Virus genome (UHGV): UHGV-0175557
DNA length: 43,714 bases
Direction: 5' to 3' (one strand)
Source of the DNA: a virus
In this document: one piece after another, positions 10,779 through 10,962 of the stretch
How the letters are laid out: every line of letters starts with the position of its first letter
How positions within the stretch are numbered: the first letter of the stretch is position 1
Program-made: the position numbers and the translations under genes
Notes under the pieces: generated by a model
Told to the model about the DNA's origin: nothing
What the model saw: the letters and a program-made list of their open reading frames with translations, nothing else
Database searches by the model: none

Positions 10779-10928
10779 ATGTGTTGTAGAACATCGTGTT
10801 GTCTGGGAAGTCCTGCTACGCAATTTGGTCTTCTTCAGTCACAGATTGGACATACTCAGGACGTTTTCAGAGGGTTTACCAGTCCGTTCATAGTACCGTT
10901 ACAGTTTTCCGTGTTCACGTTTTACTGA
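10779..10928 (+). CDS. 49-aa Cys-rich peptide (MCCRTSCCLGSPATQFGLLQSQIGHTQDVFRGFTSPFIVPLQFSVFTFY)
   Basis: Strong SD AAAAAAGGGGG 5 nt before ATG; open frame to TGA 10926-10928; terminator follows; absent from ORF track (below size cut-off). Confidence 0.5.
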   Translation: MCCRTSCCLGSPATQFGLLQSQIGHTQDVFRGFTSPFIVPLQFSVFTFY

Positions 10929-10936
10929 TCGACTTT

Positions 10937-10962
10937 GCCCCGGACAGTTCCGGGGCTTTTTT
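10937..10962 (+). terminator. intrinsic terminator (gccccgg-acagtt-ccggggc then tttttt)
   Basis: 7-bp GC stem and 6-T run ending the plus-strand accessory cluster. Confidence 0.75.

Follow-up and report, generated by a model that had tools for sequence, protein, structure and literature searches.

Background

Between terL and portal, UHGV virus genome UHGV-0175557 carries a cluster of small genes which closes with a cysteine-rich reading frame of 49 codons. Two questions are raised by this locus, namely whether such a short frame is a gene at all, and what kind of cluster it belongs to. We addressed them in a stretch of 43,714 nucleotides (hereafter the window), which derives from a 9NA-like siphovirus of the Nonanavirus/Sashavirus group and covers approximately three quarters of a 9NA-like phage genome (53-58 kb). 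The plus-strand genes of the cluster are named A, B, C, D and E, gene E being the 49-codon frame, and the convergent gene on the minus strand is named M. An earlier interpretation of the same DNA, made without database searches (the sequence-only reading), had described this cluster as inserted at a place where most phages carry nothing.

Our comparisons make it very likely that E is a genuine gene, and likewise that its cluster represents a cassette, A-B-C-D, which occurs in a wide range of phages. Around gene E the window shares 93-95% identity with the Sashavirus phages 536P12, AVIO78A, PJ16 and Bas82; for the Salmonella phages Sasha, Sergei, Solent, 9NA and SP069 the figure is 84-88%. Conservation of E was assessed in 14 loci at first, to which metagenomic and IMG/VR loci were added later; codon positions were counted in eleven 9NA-like copies of the gene. 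The cassette was surveyed in 36 IMG/VR loci bearing A-D.

Coding evidence for gene E

Gene E (10779-10928, plus strand) encodes the 49-residue protein MCCRTSCCLGSPATQFGLLQSQIGHTQDVFRGFTSPFIVPLQFSVFTFY, rich in Cys, Phe, Pro and Gln, and ends with a TGA codon (10926-10928). It is a homologue of 9NA gp15 and Seurat gp23. As the sequence-only reading had noticed, four cysteines (residues 2, 3, 7 and 8) fall within the first eight residues, MCCRTSCC. The near-ideal ribosome-binding site that it had described is also readily recognized, as a Shine-Dalgarno (SD) element AAGGGGG (10767-10773, plus strand) separated by the 5-nt spacer TTATT from the ATG at 10779. An A-run (10763-10768) and a G-run (10769-10773) together form this element. 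Gene D stops with TAA at 10762-10764, and E starts 14 nt after it on the same strand.

The strong terminator reported directly behind E lies at 10937-10962 (plus strand). Its stem, GCCCCGGA/TCCGGGGC (10937-10956), comprises 8 pairs, 7 of them G-C, around a 4-nt loop and is followed by TTTTTT, that is, a G+C-rich hairpin directly before a U-run as in rho-independent terminators. It is kept in the relatives and is annotated in Solent, Sasha and AVIO78A.

With 95 open reading frames (ORFs) of at least 30 amino acids in 10 kb, an ORF of 49 codons is by itself weak evidence for a gene. The ORF, the SD and the terminator were, however, intact in all 14 loci first compared, and the metagenomic and IMG/VR loci agree. 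The SD reads AAGGGGG or AAGGAGG in nearly all loci, with AAGGTGA in AVIO78A and AAGGGG in PDP46. Variable alignment columns fall on codon positions 1, 2 and 3 in the numbers 2, 7 and 25 (chi-square p = 2.5e-6). When the E. coli-type clade is compared with the Salmonella-type clade, E has a ratio of non-synonymous to synonymous substitution rates (dN/dS) of 0.04-0.09, which is similar to that of the flanking genes; between PJ16 and 9NA the ratio amounts to 0.064 for E, 0.039 for D and 0.098 for M. A 15-nt deletion in the window copy leaves the frame intact, and only the gene E frame stays open across all loci. The proposal of a genuine small gene with a translation signal is thus borne out, the SD being present, the frame conserved and the changes biased towards synonymous sites.

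Other explanations of the open frame were tried and rejected. Two alternative frames, a plus-strand ORF at 10796-10972 and a minus-strand ORF at 10683-10823, contain stops inside the E interval in related loci. Frameshifting or read-through from D into E was discarded because the A-run at the D stop is missing in Salmonella-type relatives and E has its own SD, and a non-coding RNA was ruled out by the codon-position pattern. No Rfam match was found in the window, and the predicted RNA fold of the E region is ordinary (z = -1.08). Taken together, the conserved frame, the synonymous bias, the in-frame indel and the lack of an Rfam match lead us to regard E as a genuine protein-coding gene under purifying selection. 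That E is instead untranslated, what is conserved being 3' untranslated sequence, a small RNA or a terminator of greater extent, would suit the shortness of the ORF and the fact that five of eight annotated relatives leave it uncalled, but is scarcely credible given the third-position bias, the low dN/dS, the strong SD conserved at a fixed spacing, the in-frame indel in the only frame open everywhere, and the unremarkable fold without Rfam counterpart.

The gene E family

E, described earlier as unannotated, is called in some relatives and not in others. Orthologues are annotated in 9NA (gp15; 9NA_015, AIB07018.1), Solent (gp24; CPT_Solent_024) and Bas82 (Bas82_0006; KarinMuster), all labelled 'hypothetical protein', whereas the gene is uncalled in AVIO78A, PJ16, Sasha, SP069 and PDP46. 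The window copy represents a new allele of this family. It is 87.5-93.8% identical to the three annotated proteins over 47-48 aligned residues and, like them, follows an 84-residue gene, with identical SD and terminator. Unlike them, it is devoid of 5 codons near the C-terminus (RPFVF) and carries the private substitutions A24G, A28D and A45V. Relative to PJ16 it shows 3 non-synonymous changes, 1 synonymous change and the 5-codon deletion, and its overall DNA divergence (2.7%) resembles that of its neighbours.

In tblastn searches with the window protein, identity was 87-94% to 9NA-like copies and 54% to the copy of yong3. The members from Seuratvirus (Seurat gp23, AIW03886.1; KS_W4 CDS0026; an uncalled ORF in Hafnia phage yong3) share the N-terminal block described below and, as in the window, lie after a D homologue and before a terminator and a convergent M homologue. 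They differ from window E in being longer (63-67 residues), with an extra CNC pair in many members, and in standing at the end of the lateral tail-fibre operon instead of between terL and portal. Throughout the family, E is found directly after D (84-98 residues) and before a terminator and a convergent M of 91-93 residues, with the exceptions of PDP46 and locus L029.

The family is defined by the N-terminal block MC-x(4-6)-CCLGSPATQ-x-G-[LI]-LQ, which is present in the window copy. In the alignments C2, C7 and C8 are conserved, and S11 varies in a few copies. The tail is rich in Phe, Pro, Ala, Val and Thr and evolves fast, with just 27-48% identity between lineages; it mostly ends in aromatic residues (FVFY, FVFW, FRIF or PRIW). 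The proteins are small (5-7 kDa) and basic, with a net charge of +1 to +3, and acidic residues are absent from most of them. Neither a signal peptide nor a double-glycine leader was detected in the E sequence, nor a segment of transmembrane grade, the maximum 19-residue Kyte-Doolittle mean being 1.0-1.3 with Pro and Arg inside the best stretch.

Searches of E against Pfam, NCBIfam and PDB gave no match. PHROG 25697 matches window E over residues 1-27 (E-value 3.1e-5). A profile search of 5.8 billion proteins recovered 9 clusters of the E family (E-values 1e-29 to 1e-12), and 1.84 billion representatives, searched exhaustively with HMMER, yielded nothing further except repeat-protein artefacts. 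No homologue was found in bacteria among the GTDB species representatives, and in IMG/VR and the JGI metagenomes E was seen only in the same two phage groups. In all, E is present in about 49 phage records, each of them 9NA-like or Seuratvirus.

Two possible origins of the sequence were considered and are not claimed here. A resemblance of E to the CCC region of A, seen by eye, gave an uncorrected E-value of 0.014 in a local tblastn, but homology received an hhalign probability of just 0.5%. An origin by duplication within the genome was discarded, no paralogous DNA having been found.

The A-B-C-D cassette and its link to tail fibres

The number of phage records with a tblastn match was 179 for A and 163 for D. 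The cluster can thus no longer be viewed as a curiosity of the terL-portal junction, the same cassette being present in more than 160 phage records. It is common to Drexlerviridae, Nonagvirus, Seuratvirus, Eiauvirus and the 9NA-like phages, its place in Drexlerviridae, Queuovirinae and Eiauvirus being behind tail or lateral tail-fibre genes, and all four genes stand in the order A-B-C-D in 33 of the 36 IMG/VR cassette loci. Wherever loci outside the 9NA-like phages were inspected (Tlsvirus DanielBernoulli, Nonagvirus JenK1, Eiauvirus eiAU, and Seuratvirus yong3, L017, L018 and L027), A-B-C-D ends the tail gene block, directly behind a tail or lateral tail-fibre gene.

In-frame fusions with fibre genes were also observed. 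The core of C forms the C-terminus of the 517-residue KS_W4 CDS0024, the N-terminal part of which matches the distal part of the Seurat gp21 tail-fibre protein, and Seurat gp21 itself ends, in frame, in just the C tail (the last 60 or so residues). In SHIN8 (locus L033, 3114-3722) the N-terminal domain of the fibre continues, without loss of frame, into the 68 C-terminal residues of A. For phiHS1, a close relative of phiG7, the fibre is reported to terminate in a domain like that of T5 pb1, which has an intramolecular chaperone (phiHS1 preprint).

Judged by these loci, A-D is very likely a mobile fibre-associated cassette, which is not special to the terL-portal junction. The peculiarity of the 9NA-like phages is the position and isolation of the cassette, with its own -35 hexamer and with terminators on both sides. 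The cassette genes are not discussed in the BASEL papers, the PDP46 paper or the phiHS1 preprint.

Gain and loss of gene E

In Drexlerviridae, Nonagvirus and Eiauvirus the next feature begins immediately after D or no more than about 70 nt behind its stop codon, which leaves no room for E. Gene M was found in 54 phage records, belonging to 9NA-like phages, Seuratvirus and Eiauvirus, and always abuts the cassette; it alone among the minus-strand genes is common to 9NA-like phages and Seuratvirus. The simplest history would be that a block consisting of A-D, terminator and M, common to both lineages, gained E once. Because one shared block would then have acquired E a single time, the co-distribution of E and M may reflect descent rather than function.

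Gene E has been disrupted on several occasions. In phiG7 (locus L019, 4300-4720) one deletion, out of frame and with CTGTT microhomology, joins A at codon 87 to E at codon 8, so that A has lost most of its length and E its start, and B, C and D are missing entirely. Two metagenomic copies, P0009 and L026, are frameshifted. The disruptions in phiG7 and in these two copies show E to be a dispensable, lineage-specific fifth cistron. The genes before E may also be missing. In PDP46 (locus L013, 3477-3800) terL is joined to the middle of D, so that A, B, C and half of D are gone and E is kept, and in locus L029 (1996-2700) E lies directly behind a different, unrelated fibre gene, without D. In 9NA, A and B are absent and C is truncated.

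As an observation in its own right, the A-E locus is a hotspot of deletion and recombination, with PDP46, phiG7, SHIN8 and L029 as examples.

Operon and neighbouring genes

The sequence-only reading had spoken of a four-gene cluster between terL and portal. A cluster with its own terminator is indeed located there, but consists of four larger genes plus gene E, and the terL-portal interval also holds five convergent minus-strand genes (10962-12188). The plus-strand operon A-B-C-D-E begins past the terL terminator, a hairpin at 8726-8743 (plus strand; stem of 7 pairs, T-rich tail) which is annotated in AVIO78A, and ends at the terminator behind E. At 8761-8766 (plus strand) lies a perfect -35 hexamer, TTGACA, annotated as a promoter in AVIO78A and a candidate promoter for A-E. 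A consensus promoter scan did not call this position, and no clear -10 element accompanies the hexamer.

Gene A (8880-9578, plus strand) encodes 232 amino acids with a Gly-rich N-terminus, a Q/N-rich middle, an invariant CCCET and a C-terminal GCC, and is the Gly-rich neighbour with CCC and GCC clusters that had been noticed before. It matches PHROG 9288 (E-value 3e-123). BASEL genomes label it 'putative sugar-binding protein', and the PJ16 annotation has 'lateral tail fiber chaperone'. A pairing of its C-terminal -GCC with the N-terminal cysteines of E was considered and rejected, as the way in which A ends bears no relation to whether E is present. Separately, the CCC part of A (residues 128-207) has a distant relative of 34-39% identity in the IMG/VR contigs L071-L113 (about 23-46 kb), where the protein ends AYGGCNCGSVNV and B-D are not nearby. 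Behind A, at 9590-9613 (plus strand), lies a hairpin (AGCGCC...GGCGCT, then TTAA) which the AVIO78A and Sasha annotations list as a terminator; it has no T-run and may be an attenuator giving an excess of A over B-E.

Gene B (9629-9988, plus strand; 119 amino acids; PHROG 9157), the poly-His neighbour of the sequence-only reading, consists of a variable, His-rich N-terminal half and a conserved helical C-terminal domain (residues about 75-119) with the motifs E-x-E-x-x-E ... E-L-x-D. A high His content of the N-terminal half is shared by every lineage; the poly-His run, by contrast, is not conserved. In profile comparison B matches the MazG-like protein AF_0060 weakly (PDB 2p06; E-value 0.044), and Pfam matches to MazG and PRA-PH are equally weak (E-values of about 0.04, each in one of eight members). 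A fold resembling nucleotide pyrophosphohydrolases would be unexpected in a fibre-associated cassette.

Gene C (10005-10523, plus strand; 172 amino acids) comprises a beta-rich core (residues about 10-130) and a disordered acidic tail. Gene D (10510-10764, plus strand; 84 amino acids), the start of which overlaps the end of C, encodes a four-helix protein. No PDB match was obtained in sequence searches with A, C, D and E, and among Pfam, NCBIfam and PHROGs only unnamed PHROGs matched the proteins of the cluster.

Gene M (10962-11237, minus strand; PHROG 15669) encodes a convergent membrane protein of 91 amino acids with three transmembrane domains, annotated as such in Sasha and Solent, and has the conserved motif YYGFVKLQHQLTY. 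The possibility that M is a holin was rejected, the lysis cassette being located elsewhere in the Bas82 genome. Further along on the minus strand, at 11398-11733, a protein of 111 amino acids has a weak double zinc-ribbon match (Pfam PF07191, E-value 9e-4). This gene is a mosaic hotspot, with 80-96 differences in about 330 nt from PJ16, 536P12, Bas82 and L021, and only 6-27 from BDX09P1, AVIO78A and L020.

On the scale of the genome, the insertion between terL and portal is one among several small-gene interruptions in 9NA-like phages, as seen in the Bas82 genome map (L034) and in the window. Blocks of small genes, encoded on the other strand, repeatedly separate the genes for morphogenesis (terL, portal, head morphogenesis, scaffold, major capsid protein, tail) from one another.

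Possible role of gene E

Because it has neither a signal peptide nor a transmembrane helix, the E protein should have its site of action in the cytoplasm or the virion, and the lack of an export signal or membrane segment, combined with a short invariant N-terminal block, suggests that it probably binds a specific partner there. We propose that E is a dispensable, lineage-specific accessory of the fibre-associated cassette. It would bind a partner through its conserved Cys cluster and its short helix, perhaps via metal or disulfide links, and this binding would help to assemble or stabilise the last products of the cassette, namely the C tail and D. We rank this proposal first because E is co-transcribed with C and D. 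Taken as a whole, with the role in assembly or as an adaptor that we infer on top of the observed purifying selection, operon anatomy, distribution, dispensability and cassette identity, the proposal is given a probability of about 0.4.

Several points weigh against this proposal. The cassette needs no E, which is present in only 4 of the 36 IMG/VR cassette loci, all four with M, and in about 49 phage records as compared with 163 for D; in these surveys E was never seen without M. It has also persisted after the loss of A-C or D in PDP46 and L029; these events look recent. No gene for a lateral tail-fibre shaft or anchor is recognisable in 9NA-like phages, the window contains no homologue of any fibre shaft or anchor protein, and a single receptor-binding protein is described for Bas82 (BASEL paper), so that the cassette of 9NA-like phages is orphaned from any fibre. 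The changes in window E relative to PJ16 may reflect relaxed constraint. Finally, the weak resemblance of B, and perhaps D, to MazG-like nucleoside triphosphate pyrophosphohydrolases fits a purely structural cassette poorly.

One alternative is that E pairs with the convergent M, the junction of E, terminator and M forming a two-gene unit. Such a unit would operate at the inner membrane, with superinfection exclusion, DNA-entry control or lysis timing as examples of its task, and E would be a cytoplasmic modulator of M. The two genes have a near-identical distribution (54 records for M and about 49 for E, while D has 163), all four IMG/VR loci with E also have M, M without E is restricted in that survey to the eiAU type, and M is the sole minus-strand gene that 9NA-like phages and Seuratvirus have in common. 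Such a partnership would also explain why E outlasts the removal of D and of A-C in PDP46 and L029. We nevertheless find it doubtful, as shared descent of one block can explain the co-distribution, and as the two genes lie on opposite strands in separate operons, which in Seuratvirus are the tail-fibre operon and an operon containing the DNA polymerase. Furthermore, phiG7 has M with a dead E, eiAU has M and no E, and the lysis cassette is found elsewhere in the genome.

The contrast between the nine invariant residues CCLGSPATQ and a tail of 27-48% identity suggests a short linear interaction motif, and this motif could also serve an independent, host-directed protein of the moron type, which would bind a host factor through its N-terminus. 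The dispensability of E, its restriction to certain lineages and, in 9NA-like phages, an operon with its own -35 element and terminator are consistent with such a role. The stretch Q-x-G-[LI]-L of E may resemble the beta-clamp-binding motif QL[SD]LF, a likeness which we offer as speculation. However, likenesses between short motifs are common by chance, E has no homology to known host-takeover proteins, and its place in the tail-fibre operon of Seuratvirus suggests late expression, atypical of host-takeover factors. A host-directed E is therefore an unlikely explanation.

A broader possibility is that A-E and M form a self-contained mobile module rich in Cys and His, which would represent a new kind of phage host-interaction or counter-defence system. 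It could combine one or two MazG-like folds (B, possibly D), the beta-domain of C, for which no structural relative was found in PDB, and the membrane protein M. In 9NA-like phages it could have been uncoupled from the fibre and given its own promoter and terminator. E could be a recent birth, limited to two lineages, and its invariant Cys-cluster motif could link the module either with M or with a target in the host. We hold this to be distinctly unlikely.

The sequence-only reading had suggested a small toxin/bacteriocin-like or a metal-handling module. In such a module A or E would be the toxin, B a metal binder and, conceivably, M an immunity-like membrane protein. The glycine-zipper-like stretch at the N-terminus of A, the conserved Cys clusters of A and E, the His-richness of B throughout its family and the dispensability of the module are compatible with it. 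M is a small protein with three transmembrane segments encoded convergently, and the immunity genes of pore-forming colicins are arranged in the same convergent manner. The toxin idea found no support, however, in that no leader, export or processing genes are annotated in the first 50 kb of Bas82 (58.5 kb), E has no transmembrane-grade segment and no double-glycine leader, and no toxin or bacteriocin family in Pfam, NCBIfam or PDB was matched, apart from a lone noise-level match of one of eight B proteins to Ntox11 (E-value 0.037). In addition, no integrase is annotated in the examined stretches of cassette-bearing phages, and PDP46 is reported to be lytic (PDP46 paper). Outside the 9NA-like phages the cassette ends a tail or fibre operon and shows in-frame fibre fusions, and M and E are absent from most A-D cassettes. 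We thus judge a toxin or metal module very improbable. With regard to metal handling by the cluster, the Cys clusters of A and E and the His-rich character of B are conserved features and the poly-His run is not, which leaves it a weak possibility.

Implications

Taken by itself, the E peptide is ordinary, as a conserved hypothetical small protein without signs of a toxin, and it deserves to be called consistently in annotation, given that five of eight annotated relatives omit it. The more useful result is that the 'accessory cluster' between terL and portal can be reinterpreted as a widespread, uncharacterised cassette which is linked to fibres elsewhere. Its function would clarify a recurrent part of the host-recognition loci of T1-like, Seurat-like, 9g-like and 9NA-like coliphages. 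Several of the coliphages bearing it belong to the BASEL collection and are easily manipulated.

Comparison with known systems

Two kinds of known small proteins invite comparison with E. Like class II microcins and small membrane toxins, it is small, contains cysteines and has a hydrophobic C-terminal half. Unlike class II microcins, it has no double-glycine leader, no exporter (judged by the first 50 kb of Bas82) or immunity operon and no segment of transmembrane grade; it is also net basic, has proline throughout its tail and occurs in phage genomes only.

The second comparison is with lambda Tfa, Mu U, T4 gp38, gp57A and similar small factors that serve in tail-fibre assembly. E is far smaller than these and Cys-rich, the window has no fibre shaft gene, and among the Pfam matches there was no profile match of E to the tail-fibre assembly chaperone families (Tfa, gp38-like), so that its membership of this group is unsupported. 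The small assembly factors themselves are encoded at the 3' end of fibre gene blocks and are often exchanged within mosaic fibre-gene cassettes.

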